64,000 nt of DNA from Chloroflexota bacterium (GTDB taxonomy: Bacteria > Chloroflexota > UBA6077 > FW602-bin22 > JBCLEL01): NCBI GenBank assembly GCA_963664835.2, contig CAXXUG010000011.1, positions 69,434 through 133,433 of the forward strand, in the 5' to 3' direction. Shown piece by piece: positions 22 through 61,983 of this stretch. Numbering within the stretch: position 1 is the first letter of the stretch; every line of letters starts with the position of its first letter. A program made the translations under genes and the position numbers. The notes below the pieces were generated by a model. The model searched no databases. It saw only the letters and a program-made list of their open reading frames with translations, and was not told the DNA's origin.

Positions 22-828
22 ATGCGACTGACCGAGCAACAGATCAACCATTTCAATACCTTCGGATTCCTGACCTTCCGGCAATTGCTTTCAGCCGAGG
101 AGCTGAAGCGCATCGACCCCGAATATAATGCCGCAGTTGATTCCGTGCTGCCGCCCGGCACTGAATTCGATGGCAAAGCCAGGATTGGCCGCCAGTTCAT
201 GGATGTGGACACGCCTTCGCTAGCTGCCTTGGGCGACGATCCGCGATTTGCAGACGTCGCCGAGCAGTTGTTGGGCAAGGAAGCTATCTGCATCGGCATC
301 GCCGGCAACTACTATGTTGGCGACACGCGCTGGCACTCCGATAGTCGTAGCCTGGACTACGCGGGCGTAAAGTTCACTATCTATTTGGAACCGTTAGGCG
401 CGACCAGTGGCGCATTGCGGGTGATACCTGGCTCGCATAAGGAACCATTGTGGAGCCAAAGTAAAATCACGGAGGATACGGAACCAGTCTTTGGTGTACA
501 GCCGAATGAAATGCCGGCCTATGCCTTCGATTCCCAGCCGGGAGATGCGCTAGTCTTCCTGCACCCTCTCTGGCATTCGTCATTCGGTGGTGGCTCCAAA
601 CGCCGCATGATAGAGGTGAACTATTACGCCGATCCGGACACGCCGGAGGCTGTGGAAGCCTGGCGCGCACAGATGGCGTTTAACCACAGTTCTTCGACCG
701 AGGAGGGCCGGCACATGTACACGAAGTATTGGCGATCGATCGATGGCCCTCGCCACCAGTGGGGAATCCGGCGCATGGCAGAGATAGGCGTCCTCGACAC
801 GCCAGGGGTTGCACCAATCGATAGTTGA
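22..828 (+). CDS. Phytanoyl-CoA dioxygenase (PhyH) family Fe(II)/2-oxoglutarate oxygenase
   Basis: 268-aa ORF. It has the His-x-Asp context GDTRWHSDS and the distal HPLWHSSFGG..KRR typical of PhyH-type oxygenases. The N-terminal LTEQQINHFNTFGF is shared with the two other PhyH paralogs in this window. Confidence 0.8.
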   Translation: MRLTEQQINHFNTFGFLTFRQLLSAEELKRIDPEYNAAVDSVLPPGTEFDGKARIGRQFMDVDTPSLAALGDDPRFADVAEQLLGKEAICIGIAGNYYVGDTRWHSDSRSLDYAGVKFTIYLEPLGATSGALRVIPGSHKEPLWSQSKITEDTEPVFGVQPNEMPAYAFDSQPGDALVFLHPLWHSSFGGGSKRRMIEVNYYADPDTPEAVEAWRAQMAFNHSSSTEEGRHMYTKYWRSIDGPRHQWGIRRMAEIGVLDTPGVAPIDS

Positions 829-5051: not shown

Positions 5052-5270
5052 ATGGTCTTTGGACGGTTCGCCAGCACACATAAAGAGATGCGGCGACAGT
5101 GCGGCCATGCCTTTGCGAGCCTCTCGCTTCGACGTTTACAGGCGTTCGGCGCCTGGTCGCCGGAGACACCTGGCGGTTTGACTCTCAGGTCTGCAGGTTG
5201 GAATCGGCGCTGGAATTCGTCACCGGATTTTCGAAGTTGCCAACCGGAATTCGATGGCGTCTGAAATAGC
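5052..5270 (+). pseudogene. Remnant of a third C45 (acyltransferase-like Ntn hydrolase) paralog: N-terminal ~65 codons, frameshifted and truncated
   Basis: MVFGRFASTHKEMRRQCGHAFASL...AWSPETP aligns with the N-termini of the two intact C45 genes (MLFGRFSGTHFEMGRQHGQAFASL / MRFERFSGSHLSMGIQRGKAF...SWSPEAQ). A second frame continues the homology (DSQVCRLESALE versus DLLFTKFESALS). The remnant ends where the halogenase-like gene begins. Confidence 0.55.
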
Positions 5271-7134
5271 CGCAGCCAGGTCGAATGAGTACGACGTAGT
5301 GGTGATAGGCGGTGGGCCCGCCGGCTCTACCGCGGCCTCGTTGCTTTCACAGCGGGGACGCCGGGTCCTGCTTCTCGAAAAAGAGAGCTTCCCGCGCCAC
5401 CACGTTGGCGAGTCTCTCCTTCCAGGCACCATCGAGGTCATGAAGCAGCTTGGAGTGCTTGAGACAGTCAAGCAAGCCGGCTTCGTACCCAAGTACGGCG
5501 CTACTTACGTTTGGGGAAAATCACGACAACCTTGGTCGGTCCAGTTCCGTGAGGTCACTAATAAGTCGGGCCTTGACAGCGACAAGCCTGACCAGTCCTT
5601 CCAGGTAGATCGATCCAAGTTCGATAAGATTCTCCTGGACCACAGTCGGGAATCTGGCGTAAAGGTCCTGGAAGGGTGCCGTGCCACCAGCGTTGATCGA
5701 GACGAGCAAAGCGTAACCCGGGTCGGTTATGTGGACCAGTCGGACGTCCCACGAGTAGCCAACTGTCAATTCTGTGTAGACGCTTCTGGCCAAAGTAGTT
5801 TGCTCGGGAATAGCCTGGACCTTCGGGAATTCAACGAATCGCTTAGAAACATCGCGCTGTACGGCTACTACCAGGGCGGACGTCCGTTGAGTGACCTGGT
5901 CCCGAACCCGGATCCCAAGAGCAACGGAAACATCTTCATCGCCGCAACTGAAGCCGGCTGGATCTGGTACATACCACTTGGCGGCGGCCGGTACAGCGTG
6001 GGACTGGTCACCGACGGCTCATCTTCTGGGGAGATAAATCGCGTAGGTCGCTACAAGTTCTATCGGGACAGTTTGGATAGTACTCGTGAGATTGCGTTCC
6101 TGCTGGAAGACGCCCAGATTGAGTCCGAATCACTTCATACGTTGAGCGACTGGTCATACATCTGTCGAAAGTTTTACGGGCCGGGATATCTGTTGGCAGG
6201 TGATGCCGCCGCCTTCATAGACCCGATTCTTTCGACTGGGGTCCATTTAGCGATGGATGGTGGCCGTCAGGCAGCGCTCGCTATCAACACGTCCCTATGC
6301 GATGCCGATCTGACGGACCAGGCTATGCAATGGTACGAGGAAGGATACAGGTCTAACGCGTCCAATTATCTACAGATGGCTGAGCACTGGTACCTCGGTC
6401 ATCGGAGTCAGACAGGGTGGTTTTCCGCCGCCAGGAACCTGGTGGATCCAACCTCTAATTTGTCCATCAGACAGGCATTTGTTCACGTGGCCGGCGGCTA
6501 CAAGTCCGACCTGTTGCCGTTCGCTGGATATCCCACTGACCAGTTGAAGACCATGTACTCGAACTTCGATAGCGCGTTGCCGAAGAGTGTCGAAGAACCT
6601 GTCGCTGTACCTATAAGCGACGGGTCGGGCAAGGTGCTGTTCAAGCGACAAGGAGAGCTTGAAGAAAGCCGTCCACGATTCCAAAAAGGCGTCAGTTATC
6701 GCGCAACGTTGGGTGCCCGTAAGTCGACCGATACGACGCTAGCTCCGCTAGTCCAGGTCGAGCAAGAGGCGGAGGGCGTAACCTGGCGAAAACGTGTCCT
6801 TTCGGTTGAGTCGTTGGGTCTGCTGCAGAAAATCGATGGGACTCGCACGGTCCGGCAGATCGTGGACGAGCTAATGGGCGGGAACGGCGCCGGCGGGGAT
6901 CGCTTCTTCCGAGAAGTGAGACGACACTATCTGGTCGGGCTCACCAAGAAGCTCTACGACGGGGGCATCATTACTTCGACGATGCCTGGCCGGCGCCGGG
7001 CCAAGCGAAAGGGCATTGCCGTAAGTGCTGCCGGAAGTCCGGCGGCTAGACGTAGCATCGGTCGCAACGACCCTTGCCCTTGCGGTAGTGGAGAGAAGTA
7101 CAAGCGTTGCCACGGGCGCTCGAGATCACGTTGA
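5254..7134 (+). CDS. Flavin-dependent halogenase-like monooxygenase fused to a PqqD/RRE-like domain and a C-terminal SEC-C zinc motif
   Basis: GGGPAGS dinucleotide fold (aa 19-25) and Lys80 in FVPKYG. The halogenase signatures are GWIWYIP (WxWxIP, aa 235-241) and FIDPILSTG (aa 321-329). A PqqD-like segment LLQKIDGTRTVRQIVDEL...LYDGGII spans aa ~505-575. The basic tail ends in DPCPCGSGEKYKRCHG (nt 7069-7116). Confidence 0.78.
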   Translation: MASEIAAARSNEYDVVVIGGGPAGSTAASLLSQRGRRVLLLEKESFPRHHVGESLLPGTIEVMKQLGVLETVKQAGFVPKYGATYVWGKSRQPWSVQFREVTNKSGLDSDKPDQSFQVDRSKFDKILLDHSRESGVKVLEGCRATSVDRDEQSVTRVGYVDQSDVPRVANCQFCVDASGQSSLLGNSLDLREFNESLRNIALYGYYQGGRPLSDLVPNPDPKSNGNIFIAATEAGWIWYIPLGGGRYSVGLVTDGSSSGEINRVGRYKFYRDSLDSTREIAFLLEDAQIESESLHTLSDWSYICRKFYGPGYLLAGDAAAFIDPILSTGVHLAMDGGRQAALAINTSLCDADLTDQAMQWYEEGYRSNASNYLQMAEHWYLGHRSQTGWFSAARNLVDPTSNLSIRQAFVHVAGGYKSDLLPFAGYPTDQLKTMYSNFDSALPKSVEEPVAVPISDGSGKVLFKRQGELEESRPRFQKGVSYRATLGARKSTDTTLAPLVQVEQEAEGVTWRKRVLSVESLGLLQKIDGTRTVRQIVDELMGGNGAGGDRFFREVRRHYLVGLTKKLYDGGIITSTMPGRRRAKRKGIAVSAAGSPAARRSIGRNDPCPCGSGEKYKRCHGRSRSR

Positions 7135-7320
7135 TTCGTCCTATCGTCAGGTCCAATGCGGCAGGCTTGATCGTGATGCTAACGGTCGACGGTTTCGGTT
7201 GGCCGGCAGCTCACGTTGGCCTCAGTGCGTTCGAGGCTTGCCCCTAGATTTCAGACGAGCGCAATCGATAGAGGCGACGGTGGAATTCGATGTTACTATG
7301 CGATCAAGGAGGGGGAACAG

Positions 7321-8373
7321 ATGCTTTTCGGAAGGTTTTCGGGAACCCATTTCGAAATGGGACGACAACACGGCCAGGCCTTTGCTAGCCTGTTGAGCCA
7401 GAACCGGGATGCGTTGCACACGGTCTCGCCGGAGGTTCGTCAACAGCAGGACTTGCTTTTCACCAAGTTTGAATCGGCATTGAGTAGGACCGCTCCGGAG
7501 CTGATCGAGGAGATGCGGGGCATAGCCGAGGGAGCCGCACTTTCTTACGAGGACGTGGTACGGCTGAACTTTGCTGAGGAAGTAGGCGGAGGCAACCTCG
7601 GATGCTCCCAATTTGGCATAGTCGCGGCCGACGGCAGCGCGGTCATGGGTAAGAATGAGGACCACGGATTCGGTCTCCGCACATACGTTGTAACCGAGCT
7701 GCATCCTGACAACGGGTATGCCCAGGTGCACGTTGGCGCCGTGAACTGGGTAGTTAGCTCCGGAAGTGGGATCAACGAAGCGGGACTGTGTGTTGGCCAA
7801 TCCTCGCTTAACGTCACAAGTGAAGCCGATGGCGTGCCCCGGTTGACGATGCTGCGACTAGTCTTGGAGCGCTGCGAGACAGTATCGGAGGCCGGGGAGC
7901 TTCTCAGGACGAAGACCGGTGGGATACGAGGGTTGAACTTTTTGATGGTGGACGCGAACGGAGATATGGCCGTGGTAGAGAGTGCTCCGTCACTGTGCGC
8001 CGTGCGCCAGACCGAGGATTGCGCAATCTGGGCATCGAACCATCCTGTCGATCCCAAGATGCGGGCGGTGGAGAGGATAATCGTAGGTACCGAGACGGAC
8101 CTAGAGCGAACGCTTGCAATGGATGCGAATTCACGGCAACGTTTTGGCAGACTTAGCGCTCTCGCGCGTGATCACGCTGACCCGCCGGGGCACGATGAGG
8201 CCCGCCGGTCGGTGGAGAGCGTGATCCGGTCCCACGGGCCGGGTGGCATGTGTCAGCACGGGCTAATGCAGACTACCTGGTCGGTATTGATGGACGCTCG
8301 CAACCGGGAGCTACTGCTGGCGGATGGGTATCCTTGCACGACAGCCTGGGAACGCTTCAGCCTCGCAAACTGA
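7321..8373 (+). CDS. Peptidase C45 family (acyl-CoA:6-APA acyltransferase-like) Ntn hydrolase, paralog 1
   Basis: An AGGAGGG SD precedes ATG 7321; the ORF is open from 7216. The putative autoprocessing site and nucleophile is GNLG|CSQFG (Cys codon 7603-7605). It is about 60% identical by eye to the downstream paralog. Confidence 0.78.
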   Translation: MLFGRFSGTHFEMGRQHGQAFASLLSQNRDALHTVSPEVRQQQDLLFTKFESALSRTAPELIEEMRGIAEGAALSYEDVVRLNFAEEVGGGNLGCSQFGIVAADGSAVMGKNEDHGFGLRTYVVTELHPDNGYAQVHVGAVNWVVSSGSGINEAGLCVGQSSLNVTSEADGVPRLTMLRLVLERCETVSEAGELLRTKTGGIRGLNFLMVDANGDMAVVESAPSLCAVRQTEDCAIWASNHPVDPKMRAVERIIVGTETDLERTLAMDANSRQRFGRLSALARDHADPPGHDEARRSVESVIRSHGPGGMCQHGLMQTTWSVLMDARNRELLLADGYPCTTAWERFSLAN

Positions 8374-8641: not shown

Positions 8642-9688
8642 ATGCGTTTCGAACGCTTTTCGGGTTCGCACCTGAGTATGGGGATTCAGCGCGGCAAGGC
8701 CTTTCGAGACCAGTTACAACAACGCAGCCATACCATCGATTCCTGGTCGCCTGAAGCCCAGGATCGAGTCGACTCTCTAGTCAGAAGGTTCGGGTCATCG
8801 CTGAGCGGTTTCGCTCCGGAACTGATTGAGGAGATGCAAGGCATCGCCCAAGGCGCCGGATTGAGCTACGAGGATGTCGCGCGCCTCAACTTCTCGGAGG
8901 AGATCGGAATACCCATCGGTTGTTCCCAGGTTGGACTCGTCAATCGCGATGGCGACGTGATGATGGGCAAGGCGGAAGACGCCGGATTCTCGCGAACGTA
9001 CGTGGTTACCGAACTCCATCCCGATCAAGGCTTCGCTCAGATTCACGTCGGTGCGATCAACTGGGTAGTCAGCTCCGGCAGTGGGATCAACGAGGCCGGC
9101 CTTTGTATCGGCCAATCCTCCCTTCGCATCTTTGACGAGGCGGAGGGAGTGCCCAGGTTGACGATGCTGCGCTTGGCACTTGAACGCTGCGCCACGGTAT
9201 CTGAGGCCTCAGAGCTTATTGAGACTGCGACCGGCGGCATCAGGGGTATGAACTTTCTGATGGTGGATGCAAAGGGCGAGATGAGGGTCATCGAGCGCTC
9301 CCCTTCGCTGTGCGCAGTCCGTCAGCCGGCGAATGGCGCGATCTGGGCTACCAACCATCCGGTTGATCCTCGAATGCGGGCAGTGGAGCACATAATCACC
9401 GGCGCTGAGCCGGATTTCGAGCGCGATCTTGCCTACGAGGCCAACTCGCGACAGAGGTTCGGCCGGCTTGATCATTTGACCCGCGACGAGGTGGATGGGC
9501 TCGGAGTGAAGGAATCACTGCAGAAGGTGATGACCTCACACGGGCCCGGTGGTGCCTGTCAGCACGGCGTTATGGAGACTACCTGGACGGTCATGATGGC
9601 CCCGCGCAGTCGCGAGTTGTGGCTGTCGGACGGACCGCCCTGTCGCAATCCGTTTGAGCTCTACTCTTTCAGCGGAAGACAACGGTAG
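8642..9688 (+). CDS. Peptidase C45 family Ntn hydrolase, paralog 2
   Basis: GGAGG SD. Nucleophile context IPIG|CSQVG (Cys codon 8921-8923). The stop TAG (9686-9688) abuts the ATG of the first GH2-like gene. Confidence 0.78.
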   Translation: MRFERFSGSHLSMGIQRGKAFRDQLQQRSHTIDSWSPEAQDRVDSLVRRFGSSLSGFAPELIEEMQGIAQGAGLSYEDVARLNFSEEIGIPIGCSQVGLVNRDGDVMMGKAEDAGFSRTYVVTELHPDQGFAQIHVGAINWVVSSGSGINEAGLCIGQSSLRIFDEAEGVPRLTMLRLALERCATVSEASELIETATGGIRGMNFLMVDAKGEMRVIERSPSLCAVRQPANGAIWATNHPVDPRMRAVEHIITGAEPDFERDLAYEANSRQRFGRLDHLTRDEVDGLGVKESLQKVMTSHGPGGACQHGVMETTWTVMMAPRSRELWLSDGPPCRNPFELYSFSGRQR

Positions 9689-12157
9689 ATGGGATCGCCG
9701 CCGCACTCGCTGTGGTCGCGCTCGTTTGAACTCGTCTACTACAATCCTTCGCCGAAATTTCGGGGGCGTACACCCTTCCGCGACCCCGAGGACGATCCGC
9801 TAACCACTGAACAGCGAATAGCCTACCTGGAAGCCTACGCCGATCTGCTGCGGCGAGAGAACGATCTGGGCGACGACTGGCTCTCCTCCGAGGTGGTCAG
9901 CGAAGAGGAAGGGCGCCAGCTGGCCTCGCAGATCAAGGCAAAGCCTCTGCCCCGCAACAGGGGGATAGTTCCGCTTCGCTTCTGGCGTTGGAAGCTGCAA
10001 GGGGCCGAGGAGGACGAGTGGGTGGCGTCCGACTTCGACGACAGCCTGTGGAACGAGCTAGAAGTGCCGACGGTGCTGGATATGGGAAGAGCGATGCTTC
10101 TAAGATGCACAGCCCATATCAGAGCGTCGGAACGAGTGGTGCTGGACATCGAATCTATCCACGACGAGTACGAGCTGTGGGTGAATGGCGAGCCGGTGGC
10201 CCACCACGAAGGCTACGAGCCGCACAGCGTGGATATCACGTCGTACGTAGAGGCAGGACAGGAGAACACATTTGCAATCTGCGTCGCCAAGAAGCCCGGC
10301 TATCAGATCGGAATCGCCGGCTGCATTCAGGTGGTGGGCACTCGCTCGGTCTACATAGAGGATCTGTTCGTGAAGCCGGTCGAGGCGATGGAAGGTCGGC
10401 CGGCACGAGTTCAGATCAACGTGACGGTAAGGAATGTCGGAGATCAGGCCTTCTCCGGGCGGTTGGAGGCCAGGTTCAACAAGTGGTACCCGGAGGAAGA
10501 CGGGGCAGTGGCGTACGAGATGGGGGCGATGGATGTAGAGGCAGGGCCAGGCGAGGCGGTGGAGCTAAGCGAGGAGTGTGTCTGGACGGGAGCGGAGCTG
10601 TGGTGGCCGGAGCGACCACGGTTGTACAGGGTGGAGGCGGTACTGAGATCGGAAGGCAGCGAGCAAATCGACGATTACGTAGACACGGTAGGAATCCGCA
10701 CTATACAGCAACGTGGAGGCAGGTTGTACCTGAACGGCCGGCGGTTCGTGGTGCGCGGTTTCTGCCACAATCTTGGTTTCGCGCCAGGGACAGACTCCCA
10801 CGGTTCGGTGTGTCCGCCGGACGCCTGGATCGTAAGGGACTTCCTGCTAGCGAAGCGCGCCAACGCGAACGGTATCCGGATACATCCATGGGGATTCGCC
10901 CAGCGGCCTGGGCAGTACAACGAATATGGATTCCCAGAATGGCACACCCACACCGATAGCACTAACTACGTTCGGATCGCCGAAATCGCCGACCAGATCG
11001 GCATTTGCCTGACTTGGGTGACCCGCCACTGGACGCTATGGCCATCTGAGTTCCGCAAGCATTACCGCGAAGACGATATGGAAAGGTTGCTGGCGCTTTC
11101 CATCAAGCGGGTGCGGAATCACCCGAGCATCATCTCTTACGAAGGCCTCAACGAGGTAGGATCCGGTATGGGGAGAGGGGTCTTAGGGGTAGAGTTGAGT
11201 CACGCCGAGCAACCCTGGGCGAGCAACTTGACCACACAGGAAATCGAGACGCTGAACCGCCGCTATGAGCAAATCTACAAGGATTTTTGCACCTGCTTTA
11301 TGCGATTAGTTGAGTCGGTAGACGACTCACGCCTAATGTGCCCGGACTCGAAGTGGGGACCCTCATACCAGGAGGACCCGAAGTTTCCTGACGCCCTCCA
11401 GCACCAGGACACTTCAATCTTCACCCTGACTGAGAGTGTTTACTGGGCTACTCACGATAAGCCCGGCTGGTATATGGAGTTCCACGATATTTACGCTAGG
11501 AAAGATCGCGTATTGCCGGACGATCGAGCGCGAGCGGTAATTTGGGATGAGTTTTCGGCGGAAGCGATGCCTGATTGGGAGCGCTATCGAGGCCTGCCGT
11601 GGCGAAGTACCTGGCTGAACAACCACATACCGGTCGGAGTGCACGAGAAGGCGAGGCTTGGGCGGCCGTTGCGGGCCTTGCGCGACTCTGAAGCCCACAT
11701 ATCGCAGGCTTATCAGGGCCTCCACTTCCAGCAGGTGGCTTACTTCGTGCGCGCCAACGGCGGCGACGGTATGCAATATGCGATCATAATCGATGGCTTG
11801 TCGCAGGGTATGTACCACAAGGGTGTATGCGACCTCTACCGGCGCGCCAAGCTGGGGTACTTCGCGGCACGTATGACCTACCAACCCACGTTGGTGACGG
11901 GGATGGACGGCGACTTTGTCCTCTCAGAGGATGATGCCCTGCGTCTGGTCCTGATCAACGATGCGGTCGAGCGCACAGGTAAGCGAGTGAAGGTGAGGAT
12001 TCAGGTCAAGCGCCCAGATGGCGGCCGGGTGGATACCGAGGAACTTGATGCCACCATCGATGCGTCGGGCGTCACTCCGGTAGGAAACTATCGGCCACAG
12101 TTTCCGGCCGCTGGCCTGTATCAGATTGAGTACGTGGTGACGCCCGTCGAGGACTAA
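9689..12157 (+). CDS. GH2-like glycoside hydrolase, tandem copy 1 (both catalytic Glu present)
   Basis: GH2 sugar-binding-domain pattern FDDSLWNELEVP...WVNGEPVAHHEGYEPHSVDIT. RVRNHPSIISYEGLNEVG matches LacZ RDRNHPSVIIWSLGNE (acid/base GAG at 11153-11155). The nucleophile context is IWDEFSAEAM. No signal peptide. Confidence 0.8.
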   Translation: MGSPPHSLWSRSFELVYYNPSPKFRGRTPFRDPEDDPLTTEQRIAYLEAYADLLRRENDLGDDWLSSEVVSEEEGRQLASQIKAKPLPRNRGIVPLRFWRWKLQGAEEDEWVASDFDDSLWNELEVPTVLDMGRAMLLRCTAHIRASERVVLDIESIHDEYELWVNGEPVAHHEGYEPHSVDITSYVEAGQENTFAICVAKKPGYQIGIAGCIQVVGTRSVYIEDLFVKPVEAMEGRPARVQINVTVRNVGDQAFSGRLEARFNKWYPEEDGAVAYEMGAMDVEAGPGEAVELSEECVWTGAELWWPERPRLYRVEAVLRSEGSEQIDDYVDTVGIRTIQQRGGRLYLNGRRFVVRGFCHNLGFAPGTDSHGSVCPPDAWIVRDFLLAKRANANGIRIHPWGFAQRPGQYNEYGFPEWHTHTDSTNYVRIAEIADQIGICLTWVTRHWTLWPSEFRKHYREDDMERLLALSIKRVRNHPSIISYEGLNEVGSGMGRGVLGVELSHAEQPWASNLTTQEIETLNRRYEQIYKDFCTCFMRLVESVDDSRLMCPDSKWGPSYQEDPKFPDALQHQDTSIFTLTESVYWATHDKPGWYMEFHDIYARKDRVLPDDRARAVIWDEFSAEAMPDWERYRGLPWRSTWLNNHIPVGVHEKARLGRPLRALRDSEAHISQAYQGLHFQQVAYFVRANGGDGMQYAIIIDGLSQGMYHKGVCDLYRRAKLGYFAARMTYQPTLVTGMDGDFVLSEDDALRLVLINDAVERTGKRVKVRIQVKRPDGGRVDTEELDATIDASGVTPVGNYRPQFPAAGLYQIEYVVTPVED

Positions 12158-12197: not shown

Positions 12198-14663
12198 ATG
12201 ACTGCTCCGGACGACTTGCTATGGTCACGTTCGTTCGAGCTGGTCTACTACAACCCTGCATCCAAGTTTCGCGGACGCACCCACTTTCGTGACCCCGAGA
12301 ACGATCCGCTAACCACCGAACAGCGAATTGCCTACCTGGATGCCTACGCCGACCTGCTGCGGCGAGAGAACGATCTGGGCGACGACTGGCTCTCCTCCGA
12401 GGTGGTCAGCGAAGAGGAAGGGCGTCAGCTGGCCTCGCAGATCAAGGCAAGGCCGCTGCCCCACAACAGGGAGATAGTTCCGCTTCGCTTCTGGCGGTGG
12501 AAGCTGCAAGGCGCCGAGGAGGACGAGTGGGCGGCGTCCGACTTCGACGACAGCCTCTGGAACGAGCTAGAAGTGCCGACGGTCCTGGATATGGGAAGAG
12601 CGATGCTTCTAAGATGCACAGCCCATATCAGAGCGTCGGAACGAGTGGTGCTGGACATCGAATCGATCCACGACGAGTACGAGCTGTGGGTAAATGGCGA
12701 GTCGGTCGCTCACCACGAAGGCTACGAGCCGCACCAGGTCGACATCACCTACGTAATCCGGCCAGGACAGGAGAATACGATTGCAATCAAGGTTGCCGAG
12801 AAGGAAGGCTACCAGATCGGCATCGCGGGCTGCATCCAGGTGGTGGGCACTCGCTCAGTCTACATAGAGGACCTGTTCGTGAAGCCGGTCGAGGCGATGG
12901 AAGGTCGGCCGGCACGAGTTCAGATTATCGTGACGGTAAGAAATGTCGGAGATCAGGCCTTCTCCGGGCAGTTGGAGGCCAGGTTCAACCGGTGGTTCCC
13001 GGAGGAAGACGGGGCAGTGGCCTACGAGATGGGGGCGATGGAGGTAGAGGTAGGGCCAGGCGAGGCTGTGGAGCTATGCGAAGAGTGCGTCTGGACGGGA
13101 GCGGAGCTGTGGTGGCCGGAGCGACCACGGTTGTACAGGGTGGAGGCGGTACTGAGATCGGAAGGTAGCGAGCAAATCGACGATTACGTAGACACGGTGG
13201 GGATCCGCACCATACAGCAACGTGGAGGCAGGTTGTACCTGAACGGCCGGCGGTTTGTGTGGCGCAGCTTCGGCGACAACCTCGGATTTGCGCCGGGTGC
13301 TGACTCCCACAGCGCTACCTGCCCTCCCGACGCCTGGATCGTAAGGGACTTCCTGCTGGCCAAGCGGGCCAACGCTAACGGCGTGCGTGTCCATCCCTGG
13401 GGTTACGGGGAGAGACCCGGAGAACGCAACGAATATGGATTCCCTGAGTTCAGCGTGCACTCGGATGGTACCAACTACGTTCGGATCGCCGAAATCGCCG
13501 ACCAGATAGGTCTTTGCCTGATCTGGGTGACACGTCACTGGACGCTAGGGGCCTCGGAATTTCGAAGTCACTATCGCGAGGAAGACCTTGAAAGGTTGTT
13601 AGTACCGTCGATCAAGCGGGTGCGGAATCATCCGAGCATCATCTCCTATGAAGGTATGAATGGCGTCGGGGTGAACGTTTTGCGCCGAGCTTTGTGGGTG
13701 CTATTCAGTGACGATCCGCAGCCCTGGCTGGGTCACCTGAATCCGCAGGAAGTAGAGTCTTTAACTCGGCTGCAAGAACGTCGATACATAGAGTATTGTG
13801 CGAGATACATACGGCTGGTCGACTCGGTGGATGATTCACGCCTAGTCTGTCCGGATTCGCATTGGGGGCCCGCTTATCAGGGTAAGACGAGCTGGAATGC
13901 GGTCCAACACAAGAACGAGTCTGTATTCACACTGACTGAGAACGTGTACTGGGACCTCCATGAGGCCCCGGGATGGTACGGTGACTTTGCAGACATGTAC
14001 GCGCATAAGGACCGACTCTTGCCGGATGATCGGACCCGAGCGGTGATTTGGAGCGAGTTCTCGGCCGAGGCGATGCCCGATTGGCAGCGCTACCGTGGGC
14101 TGCCTTGGCGAAACATGTGGATCAACCACGATAGACCTACTGCCGGCATCGAGAAGGCGCGGCTGGGCCGGCATCTGCGGAGACTGCGCGATCCGGAGGT
14201 CCATATATCGCAGGCCTACCAGGGCCTATTCTTCCAACAAGTCGCTAGCTTCATACGCGCGAGAGCGGCCGAGGGGATGAACTGCCAGTTGCTCACCGAC
14301 GGGCTTTCCCAGGGAATGTACCACAAGGGGGTATGCGACCTCTACCGACGCGCCAAGCTGGGATACTTCGCAGCACGTATGACCTACCAACCCACGTTGG
14401 TGACCGGGATGGACGGCGATTTTGTCCTCTCAGAGGATGATGCCCTGCGTCTGGTCCTGATCAACGATGCGGTCGAGCGCGCAGGTCAGCCAGTGAAGGT
14501 GAGGATTCAGGTCAAGCGCCCAGATGGCGGCCGGGTGGATACCAAGGATCTCAATGCTACCATCGATGCGTCGGGCGTCACGCCGGTAGGAAACTATCGG
14601 CCACAGTTTCCGGCCGCTGGCCTGTATCAGATTGAGTACGTGGTAACGCCGGTCGAGAACTAA
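12198..14663 (+). CDS. GH2-like protein, tandem copy 2 (acid/base Glu replaced by Gly)
   Basis: Same architecture as copy 1. The aligned motif reads ISYEGMNGVG (GGC at 13662-13664, the same codon index 489 as in copy 1). The nucleophile context IWSEFSAEAM is retained. Confidence 0.8.
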   Translation: MTAPDDLLWSRSFELVYYNPASKFRGRTHFRDPENDPLTTEQRIAYLDAYADLLRRENDLGDDWLSSEVVSEEEGRQLASQIKARPLPHNREIVPLRFWRWKLQGAEEDEWAASDFDDSLWNELEVPTVLDMGRAMLLRCTAHIRASERVVLDIESIHDEYELWVNGESVAHHEGYEPHQVDITYVIRPGQENTIAIKVAEKEGYQIGIAGCIQVVGTRSVYIEDLFVKPVEAMEGRPARVQIIVTVRNVGDQAFSGQLEARFNRWFPEEDGAVAYEMGAMEVEVGPGEAVELCEECVWTGAELWWPERPRLYRVEAVLRSEGSEQIDDYVDTVGIRTIQQRGGRLYLNGRRFVWRSFGDNLGFAPGADSHSATCPPDAWIVRDFLLAKRANANGVRVHPWGYGERPGERNEYGFPEFSVHSDGTNYVRIAEIADQIGLCLIWVTRHWTLGASEFRSHYREEDLERLLVPSIKRVRNHPSIISYEGMNGVGVNVLRRALWVLFSDDPQPWLGHLNPQEVESLTRLQERRYIEYCARYIRLVDSVDDSRLVCPDSHWGPAYQGKTSWNAVQHKNESVFTLTENVYWDLHEAPGWYGDFADMYAHKDRLLPDDRTRAVIWSEFSAEAMPDWQRYRGLPWRNMWINHDRPTAGIEKARLGRHLRRLRDPEVHISQAYQGLFFQQVASFIRARAAEGMNCQLLTDGLSQGMYHKGVCDLYRRAKLGYFAARMTYQPTLVTGMDGDFVLSEDDALRLVLINDAVERAGQPVKVRIQVKRPDGGRVDTKDLNATIDASGVTPVGNYRPQFPAAGLYQIEYVVTPVEN

Positions 14664-14704: not shown

Positions 14705-17188
14705 ATGACTGCTCCGGACGACTTGCTGTGGTCGCGTTCGTTCGAATTGGTCTATTACGATCCTTCAACTAAGTTTCGCGGGCGCACGCACTTCCGTGAC
14801 CCCGAGAACGATCCGCTAACCACCGAACGGCGAATAGCCTACCTAGATGCCTACGCCAATCTGCTGCGGCGAGAGAACAATCTGGGCGACGACTGGCTCT
14901 CATCCGAGGTGGTCGGCGAAGACGAGGCTGAGCAGCTGGCCTCGCAGATCAAGGACAGGCCGCTGCCACGCCAGCGGCAAATCGTCCAGCTTCGCTTCTG
15001 GCGGTGGAAGCTGCAAGGCGCCGAGGAGGACGAGTGGGCGGCGACCGACTTCGACGACAGCCTCTGGAATGAACTGGAAACGCCGACAGTACTGGATATG
15101 GGAAGGGCGATGCTTCTGCGGAGCCGGGAGCACATTGAAACCTCGGAACGAGTGGTGCTCGACATCGAGTCGATCCACGACGAGTACGACCTATGGGTAA
15201 ATGGCGAGTCAGTAGTTCACCACAAAGGGTATGAGCCGCACTCGGTCGACATCACATCGTTCATACGGGCGGGGCAGGAGAATACGTTTGCAATCCGCGT
15301 CGCCAAGAAGCCCGGCTATCAGATTGGAATCGCCGGGCGCATCCAAGTGGTGGGCACTCGCTCGGTCTACATAGAGGATGTGTTTGTGAAGCCGGTCGAG
15401 GCGATGGAAGGTCGGCCGGCCCGAGTTCAGATCATCACGATCGTACGGAATGCCGGCGGTCAGGCTTTCAGTGGTCGACTGGCGGCCCGTTTCTACCGGT
15501 GGTTCCCGGAGGAAGATGGGGCGGTCGCCTATGAGGCGCCATCGATGGAGGTAGAGGTTGGGCCGGGCCAGGCGGTGGAACTGAGCCAGGACTGTGTCTG
15601 GGCGGGAGCGGAGCTGTGGTGGCCGGAGCGGCCCCACTTGTACAAGGTGGAAGCGGTCGTGAACTCAGAACATGGGGAGCAACTCGACGACTATGTAGAC
15701 ACTGTGGGTATCCGAACTATACAGCAACGAGGGGGCAGGATTTACCTGAATGGCAAGCGCTTCGTATTGCGCAGTTTCGGCGATAACCTGGGATTTGCGC
15801 CGAGCGCCGACTCTCATAGCTCGGTGTGTCCGCCTGATGGCTGGATTGTCAGGGACTTCCTGCTGGCCAAGCGGGCAAACGCAAACGGCGTGCGGATTCA
15901 TCCTTGGGGTTACGGTGAAAGACCTGGAGAGTACAACGAACTCGGATTCCCGGAGTGGGGCGATCACACAGACGGCACCAGCTACGTTCGGATTGCCGAG
16001 ATCGCGGACCAGATCGGCCTCTGCCTGATCTGGGTGACTCGACTATGGACGCTGGGAGCCTCGGAATTTCGCAAACATTACGACGAACAAGAGATGGAGC
16101 GATTGCTGCCGCCGTGCATCAAACAGGTGCGGAATCATCCAAGCATAATCTCCCACGAGGGGCTCAACGGAGTTGGGGCGACTATGACGAGCGGAGCCCT
16201 CGGAGTGCTGATGGGAAGTGCCGAGGAGACTTGGTTGAGGAATCTGTCTCCACAGGAAGTCAAGACGCTGAACCATCTTCACGAGCGTCGGTACGAGGAA
16301 TTCTGTGCCAAGTTCATCCAATTGGTCAACTCGGCTGACGGCTCACGGTTGGTCTGTCCAGACTCACATTGGAGCCCAGGGTATCAGGGAGAAGCCCATC
16401 AGGTCACGACGTTTGCGTTATGGGACACGGATGTGGAGGACGAGTCAGCGTTTACCCTGACAGAGAACCTCTACTGGGCCCTCCACGAGTACCCTGGCTG
16501 GTACAGGGATTTCCAGGAAATGTATGCCAGGAAAGACCGTATCATTCCGCACGATAGAGCGCGACCGGTGATATGGACTGAGTTTGCCGCCGAGGCTATG
16601 CCCGATTGGGAGCGCTACCGAGGACTTCCCTGGCGAAATATGTGGATAAACCACGACAGTCCTACGGCTGCGATTGAAAGGGCAAGGCTTGGGCGGCCGT
16701 TGCGGGCCCTGCGCGACTCCGAGGCCCACCTCTCGCAAGCTTACCAGGGCCTGTTCTTCCAGCAGGTAAGCACATTTGGCCGGGTGGTCGGCTGCGATGG
16801 GATGAACTTTCAGCTCATAACCGATGGCTTGTCGCAGGGTATGTATCACAAAGGGGTGTGCGACCTCTACCGGCGCGCCAAGTTGGGATACTTTGCCGCA
16901 CGCATGGCCTATCAACCCACGTTGGTGACCGGGATGGATGGAGACTTTGTCTTCTCAGAGGATGACGCCCTACATCTAGTCCTGGTTAATGATGCGGTGA
17001 AGCGTATAGGGGAACGCGTGAAGGTGCAGGTTAGGGTCAAGCATCCGGAGGGCGGCCTGGTGGATTCTACCGAATTAGATGCTTCCCTCGATGGATCGGG
17101 TATTGTCGAATTGGGAGATTATAGACCGCGTTTCCCGACCGCTGGTCTTTATCAAATCGAGTATACAGTCCTGCCAGGCCAGGGTTGA
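14705..17188 (+). CDS. GH2-like protein, tandem copy 3 (acid/base Glu replaced by Gly)
   Basis: The aligned motif reads ISHEGLNGVG (GGA at 16169-16171, codon 489). The nucleophile context IWTEFAAEAM is retained. Confidence 0.8.
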   Translation: MTAPDDLLWSRSFELVYYDPSTKFRGRTHFRDPENDPLTTERRIAYLDAYANLLRRENNLGDDWLSSEVVGEDEAEQLASQIKDRPLPRQRQIVQLRFWRWKLQGAEEDEWAATDFDDSLWNELETPTVLDMGRAMLLRSREHIETSERVVLDIESIHDEYDLWVNGESVVHHKGYEPHSVDITSFIRAGQENTFAIRVAKKPGYQIGIAGRIQVVGTRSVYIEDVFVKPVEAMEGRPARVQIITIVRNAGGQAFSGRLAARFYRWFPEEDGAVAYEAPSMEVEVGPGQAVELSQDCVWAGAELWWPERPHLYKVEAVVNSEHGEQLDDYVDTVGIRTIQQRGGRIYLNGKRFVLRSFGDNLGFAPSADSHSSVCPPDGWIVRDFLLAKRANANGVRIHPWGYGERPGEYNELGFPEWGDHTDGTSYVRIAEIADQIGLCLIWVTRLWTLGASEFRKHYDEQEMERLLPPCIKQVRNHPSIISHEGLNGVGATMTSGALGVLMGSAEETWLRNLSPQEVKTLNHLHERRYEEFCAKFIQLVNSADGSRLVCPDSHWSPGYQGEAHQVTTFALWDTDVEDESAFTLTENLYWALHEYPGWYRDFQEMYARKDRIIPHDRARPVIWTEFAAEAMPDWERYRGLPWRNMWINHDSPTAAIERARLGRPLRALRDSEAHLSQAYQGLFFQQVSTFGRVVGCDGMNFQLITDGLSQGMYHKGVCDLYRRAKLGYFAARMAYQPTLVTGMDGDFVFSEDDALHLVLVNDAVKRIGERVKVQVRVKHPEGGLVDSTELDASLDGSGIVELGDYRPRFPTAGLYQIEYTVLPGQG

Positions 17189-17232
17189 TGGCCGGGCGCC
17201 GCGACACGAAATCTGCTAACGGAGGATATTCG

Positions 17233-19698
17233 ATGACGATGCAGGAGAATTCGCTTTGGTCTCGCTCTTTCGAGTTGGTCTATTACGATCCTTCACCTGA
17301 TTTCCAGGGCCGCACACACTTCCGAGACCCCGAGAACGACGCCCTGACCACCGAGCAGCGAATTGCTTACGTCGAGGCATACACTGATCTGCTGCGCCGG
17401 GAAAACGACCTTGGGGAGCGCTACCTGTCGACTGAGGTGGTGAGCGATGAGGAGTCAGAGCAGCTCGCCTCTCAGATCAAGAACAGGCCGATGTCGAATC
17501 AGCGCAATACCGTCCCCCTCTGCTTCTGGCGCTGGAAGCTGCAGGGCGCCGAGAACGACGAGTGGGTTGCGCCCGACTTCGATGACAGCGTCTGGAACGA
17601 GCTGGAAGTTCCTACCGTCCTCGATATGGGCAGAGCCATGCTTCTGAGATCCAAAGCTCATATCGAACCTTCAGAACGAGTTGTGCTAGATATCGAATCT
17701 ATCCACGACGAGTACGAACTTTGGGTCAATGGCCAGTCAGTAGTTCACCACAAAGGGTATGAGCCGCACTCCGTCGACATCACATCGGTCATACGGGCGG
17801 GCCAGGAGAATACGTTTGCAATCAAGGTTGCCGAGAAGAAAGGCTACCAGATCGGCATCGCCGGCTCGATCCAGTTGGTGGGCACCCGTTCGGCCTACAT
17901 AGACGATGTGTTTGTGAAGCCGGTCGAGGCGATGGAAGATCGGCCGGCCCGAGTGCAGATCATCACGACCGTTCGGAATGCCGGCGGTCAGGCTTTCACT
18001 GGTCGACTGGCGGCCCGTTTCTACCGGTGGTTCCCGGAGGAAGATGCGGCAGTCGCCTATGAGGCGCCGTCAATGGAGGTGGAGGTTGGGCCAGGCCAAT
18101 CGGCGGAGCTAAACCAGGAATGCAACTGGTCCGGTGCGGAGCTGTGGTGGCCGGAGAGCCCTCGCATCTACAGGCTGGAGGCCACGCTGAGCTCAGATGA
18201 TGACGAGCGCATGGACGACTATGCGGATACTGTTGGCATTCGTACTATAGAGCAGCGTGGAGGCCGGTTCTACCTGAACGGCCGGCGATTCGTGATGCGC
18301 GGTTTCTGCGACAACCTCGGATTTGCGCCGGCTCCAGACTCCCACGGCGCGACCTGCCCACCAGACGCCTGGATCGCCAGGGACCTCATCCTGGCGAAGC
18401 GTGCCAACGCCAACACCGTTCGAATACACCCCTGGGGTTTCAGCGGTCAGCCGGGGCAATACGACGACCGGGGCTGGCCAGTCTGGGGCTTGCCTACCGA
18501 TGGCACCAACTACGGCCGCGTAGCCGAGATTGCTGATCAGATTGGTATCTGTCTCGTCTGGGTAACGCGCCATTGGACGCTGTGGGCCGATGGGTTCCGC
18601 GAACACTACAATAGCGACGAGATGGAAACGCTTCTGGCGCCTTCACTGAAGCAGGTGCGAAATCATCCCAGCATCATTTCCTACGAGGGGCTGAATGAGG
18701 TGGGAGTGGGCCTGGGACCACGCGTAATCTTGGGTCGGGAAGGTGCCGAGCCGGAGTGGACTAGCCATTTGCTGCCGGATGAAGTTGAGACGCTGACCGA
18801 ATTCCATGTGCGTCTTTACAGAGATTTCTGTGCCAGTTACATCCGGTTGGTCAACTCGGTTGACGATTCGCGAGTAGTCTGCCCAGACTCCCAATGGGGG
18901 CCTGGTTACCAAGACTTTGCCGAGAGGTCGGACGCGGTCCAATTCGATGACGAGTCCGTGTTTACCATGGCGGAGAACGTCTATTGGGACTTCCACCATT
19001 ACCCTGGCTGGTACACGGACATCAAGGATATGTATGCGCGGAAAGAGCGTTTTTGGCCGGATGACCGGGCCCGAGCGGTCATTTGTGGCGAATATTCGGC
19101 AGAGGCTATGCCCGACTGGAATCGCTACCGAGGGCTGCCCTGGCGAAACACCTGGCTGAACAATGGACGCCCCACCGGTGAAATCGAGCAGGCGCGCCTG
19201 GGTCGGCCGCTGCGCGTGCTGCGGGACTCGGAGGCGCATCTGTCACAGGCCTATCACGGGCTTTGTATCTATCATTCCGCCGTCTACTTGCGCGCCACTG
19301 GTTGCGACGGCATGATCAGCCCCATCTTGGCCGACGGGTTATCCGAGGGCCAGTACCACAAGGGTTTTTTGGACCTGCATCGCCGCGCTAAGTTGGGATA
19401 CTTTGCTGTGACTATGACTTATCAGCCCACCCTAGTAACCGGAATGGACGGCGACTTTGTCTTCTCCCGGGACGACTCTTTGCACCTAGTCCTGGTGAAT
19501 GATGCGCCGCAGCGAGTTAGCAGGCCGGCAACGGTGCTGGTGCAGGCCAAGAAGTTGGACGGTTCGGTTGTAGACTCCAGGGAGGTGAGGGTAACTATCG
19601 ATGATTCAGGCATCATGCCCCTTGGAGAGTTTCAGCCGCAGTTTCCAAGCTCAGGGTTGTACCAAATCGAATACACAGTTGTGGCCGATCCGGATTGA
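17233..19698 (+). CDS. GH2-like glycoside hydrolase, tandem copy 4 (both catalytic Glu present)
   Basis: The start is set at ATG 17233 (GGAGG SD; MTMQENSLWSRSF aligns with the other copies). The ORF is open from 17185. The acid/base motif is ISYEGLNEVG (GAG 18697-18699). ICGEYSAEAM closely resembles LacZ ILCEYAHAMGN. Confidence 0.8.
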   Translation: MTMQENSLWSRSFELVYYDPSPDFQGRTHFRDPENDALTTEQRIAYVEAYTDLLRRENDLGERYLSTEVVSDEESEQLASQIKNRPMSNQRNTVPLCFWRWKLQGAENDEWVAPDFDDSVWNELEVPTVLDMGRAMLLRSKAHIEPSERVVLDIESIHDEYELWVNGQSVVHHKGYEPHSVDITSVIRAGQENTFAIKVAEKKGYQIGIAGSIQLVGTRSAYIDDVFVKPVEAMEDRPARVQIITTVRNAGGQAFTGRLAARFYRWFPEEDAAVAYEAPSMEVEVGPGQSAELNQECNWSGAELWWPESPRIYRLEATLSSDDDERMDDYADTVGIRTIEQRGGRFYLNGRRFVMRGFCDNLGFAPAPDSHGATCPPDAWIARDLILAKRANANTVRIHPWGFSGQPGQYDDRGWPVWGLPTDGTNYGRVAEIADQIGICLVWVTRHWTLWADGFREHYNSDEMETLLAPSLKQVRNHPSIISYEGLNEVGVGLGPRVILGREGAEPEWTSHLLPDEVETLTEFHVRLYRDFCASYIRLVNSVDDSRVVCPDSQWGPGYQDFAERSDAVQFDDESVFTMAENVYWDFHHYPGWYTDIKDMYARKERFWPDDRARAVICGEYSAEAMPDWNRYRGLPWRNTWLNNGRPTGEIEQARLGRPLRVLRDSEAHLSQAYHGLCIYHSAVYLRATGCDGMISPILADGLSEGQYHKGFLDLHRRAKLGYFAVTMTYQPTLVTGMDGDFVFSRDDSLHLVLVNDAPQRVSRPATVLVQAKKLDGSVVDSREVRVTIDDSGIMPLGEFQPQFPSSGLYQIEYTVVADPD

Positions 19699-35323: not shown

Positions 35324-36148
35324 CTACCTGAGGCCCAGCTCCACCAACCTAGACACCATTGGAGCGATTCGAGGGGTTTTGATCTCCAAGAAGGAATCGT
35401 CATATACCTGGGCGGTCTGCTTGTGCTGCGCCTGCTTTATGTAGTCGAGGTTGAACTGATGGATGGCTTCGAAATACGCCATTTGCTCCGGGCTGGTCGG
35501 GTTCTCGGCAAAATTGATAGTGAACGACCGCCGGCCGGCGCGCCCGCCGAACGATGAGTGCCATACGTTCTGGTCCATCACCAGGGCGTCGCCGGGATCG
35601 GTCTCGATGGGAAACGCCGGCACTTCCTCTGGTGACGCCCCAAAAGGGTCTACCGCCGGATCATTCTTCTGGGCTCGCAACGGCTTGACCGCATCGTAGA
35701 ATGGGTATCGATGTGAGCCCGGGATCACTCTCAAACAACCATTTTCCTTGTTGAGTGGATCCAGGTAGAACGAGATCTTGATTCGGTTCAACTCCATTTG
35801 CGATCCATCCGCGTGAATGTCCGGCCACCAGGCATCGGGATGCCACCCCGTGTCTCCGACGTACAGGTTCGCATCGGAACCCATCCAGACGCAGTCGGGT
35901 CCGAGGATCTGTTGGATAGGTTCGCAAATCCTCTGTTCGAGATGCTCGGTCAGTAGAGGGCGCTTTTCCACAAATCCCTGGACGGTATGCCGCTTCGCCC
36001 CATCGAACAGCCGGCCGTCCCGATCATTCACCAGGACTTCGTCGAACTCGCGATTCAGGCCGGCGACCTCGTCCTCGGAGAAGAAGCTCCGCACAACTAC
36101 GAAACCAAAGGCCCTGAAGTGGTTCACCTGTGAGTCATTAAGGCGCAT
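35324..36148 (-). CDS. Phytanoyl-CoA dioxygenase family oxygenase (paralog 3)
   Basis: The start is set at MRLNDSQVNHFRAFGF (AAGGAGG SD). Motifs are GDTGWHPDAWW (HxD) and the distal VWHSSFGGRAGRRS. Confidence 0.8.
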   Translation of the reverse strand: MRLNDSQVNHFRAFGFVVVRSFFSEDEVAGLNREFDEVLVNDRDGRLFDGAKRHTVQGFVEKRPLLTEHLEQRICEPIQQILGPDCVWMGSDANLYVGDTGWHPDAWWPDIHADGSQMELNRIKISFYLDPLNKENGCLRVIPGSHRYPFYDAVKPLRAQKNDPAVDPFGASPEEVPAFPIETDPGDALVMDQNVWHSSFGGRAGRRSFTINFAENPTSPEQMAYFEAIHQFNLDYIKQAQHKQTAQVYDDSFLEIKTPRIAPMVSRLVELGLR

Positions 36149-36281
36149 CGACCGTTCCTCCTTATTCGCTGGCGGCGTGCGAGCGGTATTCTCGGCCCGG
36201 AATTCTAACAAGTGGCGCGCAATTCGTGGGACGCTCGCGACTGTGTAGTCGCGTGTCCATCTCGAAAAATGCTCCAATTTT

Positions 36282-60131: not shown

Positions 60132-60142
60132 GAACGGGATTC

Positions 60143-61417: not shown

Positions 61418-61983
61418 CCAGCGCGTTTTTTGAAGAATGCGTGGCAATTGACACTAACGTGTTTGAGCACCTATTGAATCCTCAAGTTAATACTGAATCG
61501 CACATAAGCGGTTTGCTCCAAGATCTTCAAAGACAAGAAATCGCCCTTATTCTCGATGATAAGAAACGTGTCTCGGGCGAGTATGAGAACCGCATCACGC
61601 CTGCCATCCGCAATGCTGATGTTATGCGCGCAGAATTGCCCATTCTGCGTTATTGGTTTTTGGATGCACCACGACTCGAAGTCCCCCTAGACTTGCGTGA
61701 CCAGCTTATGCAAACGATCAAAGCAGTGATTAATGAATCTTCTGAGAGCGTGGATAGGATTCTTGTCTATGTGGCCTTCAAGAAGGGAAAAACTCTCATT
61801 ACCAATGATGAGACTCATATAGTAATGGGACCACCTACGGAGCAAGCGCAAGCTCCGCGACGGGCCAGACTGCTGCGTCGCACGAAGAAAATACGAGCGG
61901 CAGGATCTTGCATTTTGACCTCTAAAGAAGCGTACACAGAGATTAATCGATGTCCCACACCACCATCGATCGACTCATCGTAA
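61414..61983 (+). CDS. PIN-like domain protein (putative nuclease)
   Basis: The N-terminal VAIDTNVFEHL carries the first PIN acidic residue (D13, nt 61450-61452). A late LITNDETH motif is also present. The TTG start overlaps the ATPase stop (TTGA). The 3' end overlaps the res start by 34 nt. Confidence 0.6.
   Translation: MTSAFFEECVAIDTNVFEHLLNPQVNTESHISGLLQDLQRQEIALILDDKKRVSGEYENRITPAIRNADVMRAELPILRYWFLDAPRLEVPLDLRDQLMQTIKAVINESSESVDRILVYVAFKKGKTLITNDETHIVMGPPTEQAQAPRRARLLRRTKKIRAAGSCILTSKEAYTEINRCPTPPSIDSS

Follow-up and report, generated by a model that had tools for sequence, protein, structure and literature searches.

A gene at 5254..7134 (+ strand; ATG start, stop codon at 7132-7134) of a 64,000-nt stretch of DNA from an uncultivated Chloroflexota bacterium, hereafter the window, to which all gene positions refer, encodes a protein of 626 aa made of three parts: a CmlS-type flavin-dependent halogenase, a winged helix that is PqqD-like, and an added SecA-type (SEC-C) metal-binding tail, the whole belonging to an uncharacterised Chloroflexota family. 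An earlier interpretation made from the letters alone (the sequence-only reading) had assigned this halogenase/PqqD-like/SEC-C composition to the open reading frame (ORF) and had attached to it a role in tailoring RiPPs (peptides that are ribosomally synthesised and post-translationally modified). All three parts were upheld, and each motif it quoted was found at the residue given for it, with CPCGSGEKYKRCHG near the protein end; the proposed RiPP role is partly supported, and the surroundings give it no backing. The identical protein is already present in public collections in a cluster of 27 members, one of which carries the JGI label 'halogenation protein CepH'. No description of a fusion between a halogenase and a RiPP recognition element (RRE), or of a halogenase combined with SEC-C, was found in the searchable literature. 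A winged helix behind such a flavin adenine dinucleotide (FAD) core is already established for CmlS and QhpG; we found no description of the winged helix as a PqqD-family domain, of the SEC-C tail, or of how large the family is and in which lineages it occurs.

The halogenase core

The catalytic FAD/halogenase module occupies 5254..6498 (+; aa 1-415), as delimited by Pfam, sequence matches in the PDB, AlphaFold2 and Foldseek. Pfam placed Trp_halogenase (PF04820) on it at E = 1.7e-38 (133.1 bits against a cut-off of 21) and FAD_binding_3 at E = 2.4e-27, and the leading PDB sequence matches, which span aa 8-416, were FasV (8zop, 8.8e-84), CndH (3e1t, 2.2e-67) and CmlS (3i3l, 8.6e-62), the next solved relatives (ChlB4, Mpy16, PltA and RadH) all being halogenases. 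The predicted local distance difference test score (pLDDT) of the core in the AlphaFold2 model is mostly 85-98, and a Foldseek search with the full-length model returned FasV at 1.8e-35 (423 columns, 37% identity) and CmlS at 2.3e-35, with CndH at 32% identity. Although FasV (8ZOP, 412 aa) is the best match to the core, it ends directly after it, and the alignment to CndH (3E1T) stops at about residue 400-415; the PqqD-like domain and the SEC-C motif are absent from both proteins. CmlS lies in the same branch, its residues K71, E44 and D277 have conserved equivalents here and its total length is similar to that of the present protein before the tail, but it is not an ortholog, has no SEC-C tail and, unlike this gene, sits in an antibiotic gene cluster. 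By sequence, the core is a member of the CmlS/CndH 'variant B' branch of flavin-dependent halogenases, which have been described as acting on thioester-bound substrates (PMC4859513).

Residue conservation was read from an alignment of 118 homologs (38-97% identity), and the equivalents of CmlS residues were mapped through a profile (hidden Markov model) alignment to 3i3l. The GGGPAGS dinucleotide-binding (GxGxxG) motif (5308..5328, +; aa 19-25) has G19, G21 and G24 invariant, and E53 (5410..5412, +), the equivalent of CmlS E44 and a conserved Glu beside the flavin, is kept in 117 of the 118 homologs, the exception being a gap. The catalytic Lys of flavin-dependent halogenases is K79 in PrnA and K71 in CmlS; its equivalent in this protein, the chloramine- or hypohalous acid-directing K80 within FVPKYG (5491..5493, +), is likewise present in 117 homologs and falls in a gap in the remaining one. 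The WxWxIP motif, which holds the substrate away from the flavin, reads WIWYIP (5959..5976, +; aa 236-241), with W236, W238 and P241 invariant and I240 in 115 of the 118. D299 (6148..6150, +), counted from the 3i3l alignment as the equivalent of CmlS D277, occurs in every homolog; in CmlS this Asp is reportedly bound covalently to FAD, and the numbering of D277, E44 and K71 that the alignment yields is presumably that of the CmlS structure paper. The last signature, FIDPILSTG (Fx.Px.Sx.G; 6214..6240, +; aa 321-329), has F321, D323, P324 and G329 invariant and either Ser or Ala at position 327. With all of these signatures present, the protein reads as a halogenase-type flavoenzyme rather than a plain monooxygenase, as had been proposed. 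The sequence-only reading had named absence of the Lys/Glu geometry as the mark of a plain FAD monooxygenase; what can be said at the level of sequence is that the Lys and Glu positions are both conserved.

Among the NCBIfam models, CmlS scored highest for the protein (9.2e-83); the CmlS equivalog NF033113 gave 278.6 bits against a cut-off of 900, over model positions 4-357 of 570 only, and did not reach its threshold. The models that follow describe a different chemistry, the QhpG equivalog NF049967 at 1.4e-51 (175.7 bits, under its cut-off of 240, with no qhp-like neighbours), LodB at 2.5e-40 (138.7 bits against a cut-off of 400) and GoxB at 1.9e-25: QhpG is a peptidyl-Trp dihydroxylase, LodB and GoxB have homologous FAD cores, and all three are monooxygenases rather than halogenases. 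One explanation is that the protein does not act as a halogenase in vivo but is a QhpG/LodB-like flavin monooxygenase, hydroxylating either a small molecule or a residue in a partner protein, with the halogenase motifs kept as inherited baggage. Such an enzyme would fit the good scores of the QhpG and LodB models, the fact that QhpG keeps both Trp residues of WxW as well as a winged helix, and the occurrence of luciferase-like monooxygenases and PhyH among the neighbours of family members. We nevertheless consider this explanation highly improbable, given that the QhpG and LodB scores fall below the curated cut-offs and far under those of CmlS and the solved halogenases, and that the near-complete conservation of K80, E53 and D299 argues for selection on halogenation chemistry. 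QhpG and LodB/GoxB are each encoded beside their protein substrate, and no such partner is conserved here.

PqqD-like domain, SEC-C tail and family distribution

Behind the core, a linker (6499..6681, +; aa 416-476) that contains a conserved helix GGF.P.QL...Y (424-438; G425 and Y435 invariant) and a disordered stretch at 442-460 (pLDDT <50) leads into the PqqD-like winged-helix domain (6682..6978, +; aa 477-575), which was identified through profile matches to PqqD structures. Used alone, the window sequence touched PaaA-like_N weakly (E = 0.14) and did not reach the Pfam threshold for PqqD, so that family profiles were needed. A profile of 29 C-terminal segments (aa ~477-582) had as its top three PDB matches 5sxy (1.9e-4), 8hkr (3.7e-4) and 3g2b (7.8e-4), of which 5sxy and 3g2b are PqqD and 8hkr is the winged helix of the protein methyltransferase PKMT/Rv2067c; PqqCD (5vrd) and then the RRE of PaaA came lower. 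An independent profile of the sister clade (~35-43% core identity) again put PqqD first (3g2b, E = 0.0033), and the two clade profiles matched each other at 97% hhalign probability. Against 1.84 billion representative proteins the 29-segment profile returned its own family and then small proteins at library-wide E-values of 8e-6 to 6e-4; when ten of these outside-family matches were tested, seven carried PF05402 above the Pfam threshold, two were repeat artefacts and one had no family. Scanned singly, 17 of the 29 members touched PF05402 and 16 touched PaaA-like_N. Routine Pfam annotation overlooks the domain in all 120 listed homologs (precomputed PF05402 annotation in 0 of the 120). The earlier assignment of the C-terminal region to PqqD relatives thus holds, since both clade profiles put PqqD structures first and the profile searches, which might have led to a non-RRE family, led to PqqD. 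We conclude from the profile evidence that aa 477-575 form a predicted PqqD-family winged helix, a conclusion that does not extend to its working as an RRE.

The predicted elements of the domain are three strands (480-487, 497-506 and 509-517) followed by three helices (518-526, 533-540 and 550-569). AlphaFold2 gave the same order both for the isolated segment (pLDDT 85; E2-10, E18-28, E31-39, H42-48, H55-63, H72-91) and for the full protein (pLDDT 81, predicted TM-score 0.80), in which the domain lies mostly at pLDDT 82-93 with local dips. The region is conserved throughout the family and includes LLQKIDGTRTVRQIVDEL, located around aa 520-540, and the motif 'LLxxIDGxRSV', in which G529 is invariant and position 528 is Asp or Asn. 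With PqqD and the RREs (PF05402; 5SXY, 3G2B, PaaA 5FF5, TbiB1 5V1U) it has in common profile-level homology and a 'DG' motif after helix 1; it differs from them in being fused to a halogenase, in its unusually long strands of 8-10 residues and in its lack of RiPP context, and any peptide binding by it is putative.

Foldseek aligned the full model with the CmlS crystal structure (3I3L) over 582 columns (TMq 0.63, TMt 0.71), compared with at most 488 columns for all other listed matches, and an alignment of 582 columns must include the C-terminal domain of CmlS. In the model the PqqD-like domain therefore appears to sit where CmlS has its C-terminal winged helix, a domain that is said to shape the substrate tunnel. 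The same layout is found in QhpG (7CTQ), in which a homologous FAD core is followed by a winged helix and the substrate pocket lies between the two domains.

A basic disordered tether (6979..7062, +; aa 576-603), rich in Arg, Lys and Ala (its 28 residues include 6 Arg and 2 Lys), with pLDDT <50 at 578-600 and with a length and sequence that differ between homologs, carries the SEC-C or SecA-type metal-binding motif RNDPCPCGSGEKYKRCHGR (7063..7119, +; aa 604-622) at the end of the protein. The motif was identified by Pfam (PF02810; E = 5.3e-10, 39.4 bits against a cut-off of 20.4) and by PDB peptide matches to the SecA metal-binding domain (1sx0, 1tm6 and 1ozb at 5e-8 to 3e-7, the best at 5.5e-8) and to the YchJ C-terminal peptide 9l6b, and CPCGSGEKYKRCH conforms to C-x-C-x-S-G-x8-C-[HC] at the extreme C-terminus. 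With Pfam above threshold and SecA peptides matching, the tail that had been likened to SecA is a bona fide SEC-C motif. As in the C-terminal tail of SecA, a basic and flexible linker leads to a terminal C-x-C-x-S-G-x8-C-H; in contrast to SecA, YecA and YchJ, the tail here is borne by a cytosolic tailoring-type enzyme and not by a translocase or chaperone. The conserved Ser of CxCxSG is kept (CPCGSG), and Cranford-Smith et al. link this Ser to iron preference and describe SEC-C-type domains as binding redox-active iron; Zn/Fe binding and SecB, ribosome or phospholipid binding are known only for SecA and YecA (bioRxiv 10.1101/613315). By analogy with the SecA tail, the motif on its long basic tether would be a Zn/Fe-binding accessory that docks the enzyme on an acidic partner, whether membrane phospholipid, ribosome or another protein.

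A regulatory part for the C-terminal pieces, in which the Cys3His knuckle or the tail would plug or sense the active site (redox, hypohalous acid) or the winged helix would bind nucleic acid, strikes us as very improbable. In its favour, the C-terminal tail of CmlS reportedly blocks the tunnel or active site, the redox-active iron of SEC-C-type domains (bioRxiv 10.1101/613315) would suit a sensor, and this scaffold seems to have gained the tail on two occasions. YchJ, whose metal-binding domains are SecA-like, has also been reported as a sensor of reactive oxygen species, with the switch being a Cys149 disulfide rather than SEC-C (PMC13377102). On the other side, most members have no tail yet keep the winged helix, so that the tail is not essential to the core mechanism; autoinhibition has no direct evidence behind it, and no DNA binding by PqqD-type domains is known.

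Of the clusters that a full-length search recovered, ~19 (612-640 aa) bear the SEC-C motif, and >100 (~560-590 aa) end directly behind the PqqD-like domain. The sequence-only reading did not recognise the three-part fusion, and this view has to be divided: the halogenase/PqqD-like architecture is common to >100 clusters, whereas the SEC-C tail is the rarer addition, and its absence from most members indicates that it is not part of the core mechanism. Relatives among GTDB species representatives are almost all metagenome-assembled genomes (MAGs) of Chloroflexota/Dehalococcoidia, some labelled SAR202, many of them from sponge metagenome bins, with a few from Pseudomonadales, Entotheonella and others. 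In a neighbour-joining tree of the catalytic core the family falls into two large clades, both with the PqqD-like domain, and the tail is found in one subclade of each, a distribution that suggests two gains or repeated losses. The second tailed subclade (loci L041, L047, L050 and L065) has 35% identity and lengths of 563-582 aa, with the gene ending at ~9677-9689; its proteins end in the PqqD-like domain plus VGRNDxCPCGSGKKYKRCHG, which suggests an independent gain of SEC-C on the same scaffold. The apparent double acquisition in turn suggests that the tail is useful to this scaffold. Throughout ~1.4 Mb of flanking sequence the SEC-C motif was confined to these halogenases. Several genomes hold two or three paralogs. 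For three SEC-C-tailed paralogs (P0003, P0015 and P0154, with ~97%, 68% and 52% identity to that of the window) the longest contig has the same length, 4,087,599 bp, which suggests that a single 4.09-Mb contig carries them all; two occur on the complete Chloroflexota chromosome OZ253568.1.

Surroundings of relatives, substrate and proposed mechanism

All ORFs of >=30 aa within 6 kb of the gene were clustered over 85 loci. The recurrent neighbours were Gfo/Idh/MocA oxidoreductases (18), solute-binding proteins (SBPs; 11) and PhyH (8); no small-ORF family was found for the clade of the window protein. In the flanks of the nearest relatives there was no shared coding sequence, and the closest SEC-C relatives stand in three unrelated contexts (BCKDH/glyoxalase/Rce1-like; DUF3604/pterin-4a/ATP-binding cassette (ABC) transporter; sulfatase/PhyH/ABC/GH4). 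The sister clade (~540-550 aa) is more regular, with a luciferase-like flavin mononucleotide (FMN) monooxygenase immediately upstream in 33 loci and an alpha/beta-hydrolase nearby in 26, so that monooxygenase, hydrolase and halogenase-PqqD gene look like a conserved three-gene unit; such loci fall within L026-L083 (e.g. L029 5525-7691 and L063 879-2219) and come from Dehalococcoidia MAGs, one labelled SAR202. Small-ORF clusters do exist in this clade; they resemble shadow frames of the two conserved genes, those for the monooxygenase and the hydrolase. Entotheonella and proteobacterial members adjoin an HpcH aldolase, a luciferase-like monooxygenase and a SnoaL protein. Judged by the predicted functions, these are contexts of small-molecule oxidation and uptake, not RiPP clusters, although adjacency is weak evidence.

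It had been noted correctly that no precursor-peptide gene is visible nearby, and none was found in the window or in the related loci. The further step of the sequence-only reading, that the fusion implies a peptide substrate, did not carry: an RRE is expected to be encoded with a precursor peptide and RiPP maturation genes, and 87 related loci were without a conserved small ORF, a protease, a RiPP transporter or a second RiPP tailoring enzyme, just as the 64-kb window was without radical SAM, YcaO, lanthipeptide and protease/transporter genes. On account of the known functions of the PqqD family and the precedent of QhpG and LodB, a peptide or protein substrate encoded elsewhere is kept as a serious alternative, if one that we hold to be rather unlikely; the proteins matched in the PDB (PqqD, the PaaA RRE and Rv2067c) bind peptide or protein and pull in this direction. 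In its specific form, in which an RRE-dependent peptide halogenase captures through the domain a leader or recognition segment encoded elsewhere and delivers Trp, Tyr or His to K80, we would call it unlikely. Here the next-best NCBIfam matches count in its favour, since QhpG dihydroxylates peptidyl Trp and LodB and GoxB, which act on residues of a partner protein, are named protein 'maturases' by NCBIfam. Moreover, ~40% of high-confidence RREs are not beside known RiPP genes (PMC12710340), and characterised RiPP halogenases exist in SrpI and MibH, which are of the Trp-halogenase type and have no embedded RRE (PMC10858898). Those two enzymes are flavin-dependent and act on peptides, and unlike the present gene they are encoded inside RiPP clusters. 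Beyond the empty loci, an RRE-dependent peptide halogenase sits poorly with the flanks of the closest relatives, which have nothing in common, with the many paralogs per genome, with the sister clade's placement in a monooxygenase/hydrolase operon, and with CmlS, not known to modify ribosomal peptides, which appears to have a winged helix at the same place. The 70-aa ORF at 5052-5264 does not help, being conserved only in a 97.6%-identical strain and looking non-coding in composition.

The best explanation of the protein as a whole, to which we would give about an even chance, is a two-component FADH2-dependent halogenase whose winged helix selects the substrate and whose tail docks the enzyme. 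Following the mechanism of the family, a separate flavin reductase would supply FADH2, FAD-OOH would oxidise Cl- or Br- to hypohalous acid, and this acid would travel ~10 Å down the tunnel to K80, which would present it to the substrate. On the pattern of CmlS and QhpG, the PqqD-like domain would lie over the tunnel mouth and select or gate the substrate, which would explain why it is kept in every paralog while its surface residues vary; it would then be the substrate-selecting module of each paralog. For the substrate itself, a non-RiPP metabolite that is either small and aromatic or enolisable, or else tethered to a carrier, is a proposal that we see as evenly balanced between right and wrong, and it is favoured over a cis-encoded RiPP precursor because of gene context, the CmlS precedent and paralog expansion. 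Such a substrate may be connected with the genes for uptake and oxidation of organic matter that are met repeatedly near family members.

Several observations weigh against a two-component halogenase with a substrate-selecting winged helix and a docking tail. To our knowledge, all PqqD-family domains of known role bind peptide or protein, and we know of no SEC-C tail on an enzyme with a demonstrated function. No flavin reductase gene was found in the 64-kb window, and the neighbourhoods are variable, ABC transporters and PhyH being so abundant there that recurrent adjacency may be background. Neither the clade profiles (E <= 10) nor the full-length profile detected sequence similarity to the winged-helix domains of CmlS or QhpG, so that homology with those domains is unproven. 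The sequence-only reading had also looked to a structural model and Foldseek to confirm the winged-helix fold. The predicted order of strands and helices agrees with it, and the comparison with known structures speaks neither for nor against: the isolated domain returned nothing from the PDB at E <= 1e-3, its top matches were STING and SNX11 (noise), and the best true RRE, TbiB1, stood at rank 29 with a weak TMt of 0.56. For such short domains, Foldseek has been reported to yield ~75% false positives (PMC12710340).

A bolder alternative joins the two C-terminal parts, making the PqqD-like domain a working peptide-recognition element and the tail an anchor at the ribosome or membrane, such that the enzyme would halogenate specific targets with genes elsewhere in the genome, whether ribosomal peptides, nascent proteins or exported ones. 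We hold this to be quite improbable. Were it true, the protein would be the first RRE-guided halogenase, possibly a co-translational or membrane-localised one, it would reveal a hidden route by which sponge-associated Chloroflexota make halogenated peptides or proteins, and the apparent double acquisition of the tail would reflect selection for localisation.

Flavin-dependent halogenases are sought as catalysts for selective C-H functionalisation, and substrate selection is the central question for each new one. In this respect the gene flags a large unannotated family, mostly of Chloroflexota, with a PqqD-type module for which we propose a substrate-selecting role, and it opens the possibility, without showing it, that CmlS and QhpG, too, have 'winged-helix' domains of this peptide-binding-type fold class. 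Should the domain bind peptides, a halogenase with an embedded RRE would be at hand for the first time, genome mining would gain a new handle, and the interest of the protein would rise sharply; if the domain gates small molecules, an RRE-type fold would have been recruited for non-RiPP chemistry, which would call for caution in RRE-based mining. The producers of the organobromines in which sponges abound are for the most part unknown, and many family members come from MAGs of sponge symbionts, a tie that is circumstantial. The SEC-C tail on an enzyme also offers a cheap test case for the role of the motif outside SecA.

Neighbouring genes in the window

The halogenase gene lies inside an array of genes on the same strand. 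Upstream are PhyH (22-828, +), a sugar-type SBP (1162-2649, +) and two permeases (to 5006, +), and directly downstream are two tandem AAT/peptidase-C45-like (Ntn-hydrolase) genes (7216-8373 and 8642-9688, +). These are followed by four tandem GH2-like paralogs of 821-837 aa (9689-12157, 12198-14663, 14705-17188 and 17185-19698, all +), an unusual local gene amplification with weak matches to glycoside hydrolase family 2 domains. Behind these lies an FG-GAP/ASPIC-UnbV protein (19728-21998, +), and a DDE transposase (DDE_Tnp_1_6/DUF772; 23170-24759, +) marks the end of the glycosidase gene block. In the 97.6%-identical strain (L086, 8.3-kb contig) the order is the same over the stretch covered, from the SBP to the second AAT gene; the arrangement of the halogenase with two tandem AAT genes is present in that strain and in no more distant relative.

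The 70-aa ORF at 5052-5264 (+) overlaps the halogenase start codon, and a gene caller predicted the same ORF in the near-identical strain. As a candidate precursor peptide it was rejected, having no Pfam family and no conservation upstream of relatives below ~97% identity; the comparison with the near-identical strain (5 nucleotide and 3 amino-acid differences) is uninformative. From its composition, rich in Arg, Ser, Gly and Trp, the ORF is probably non-coding.

PhyH-family dioxygenase genes occur twice in the window, at 22-828 (+) and 35324-36277 (-), and two to three times in locus L085. Adjacency to PhyH was rejected as an orthologous link between family members, as the window PhyH is 21% identical to the PhyH that recurs in another subclade; its recurrence near family members may reflect expansion of the PhyH family in these genomes. 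Elsewhere in the window are housekeeping and redox genes and what is probably a restriction/defence island. This last stretch (57504-64000, +) comprises a large N6/N4 DNA methylase, an AAA_15/AAA_21 ATPase and two unassigned ORFs, coincides with a dip in GC content at 60-62 kb (0.49 compared with ~0.58 elsewhere), and was probably acquired horizontally.

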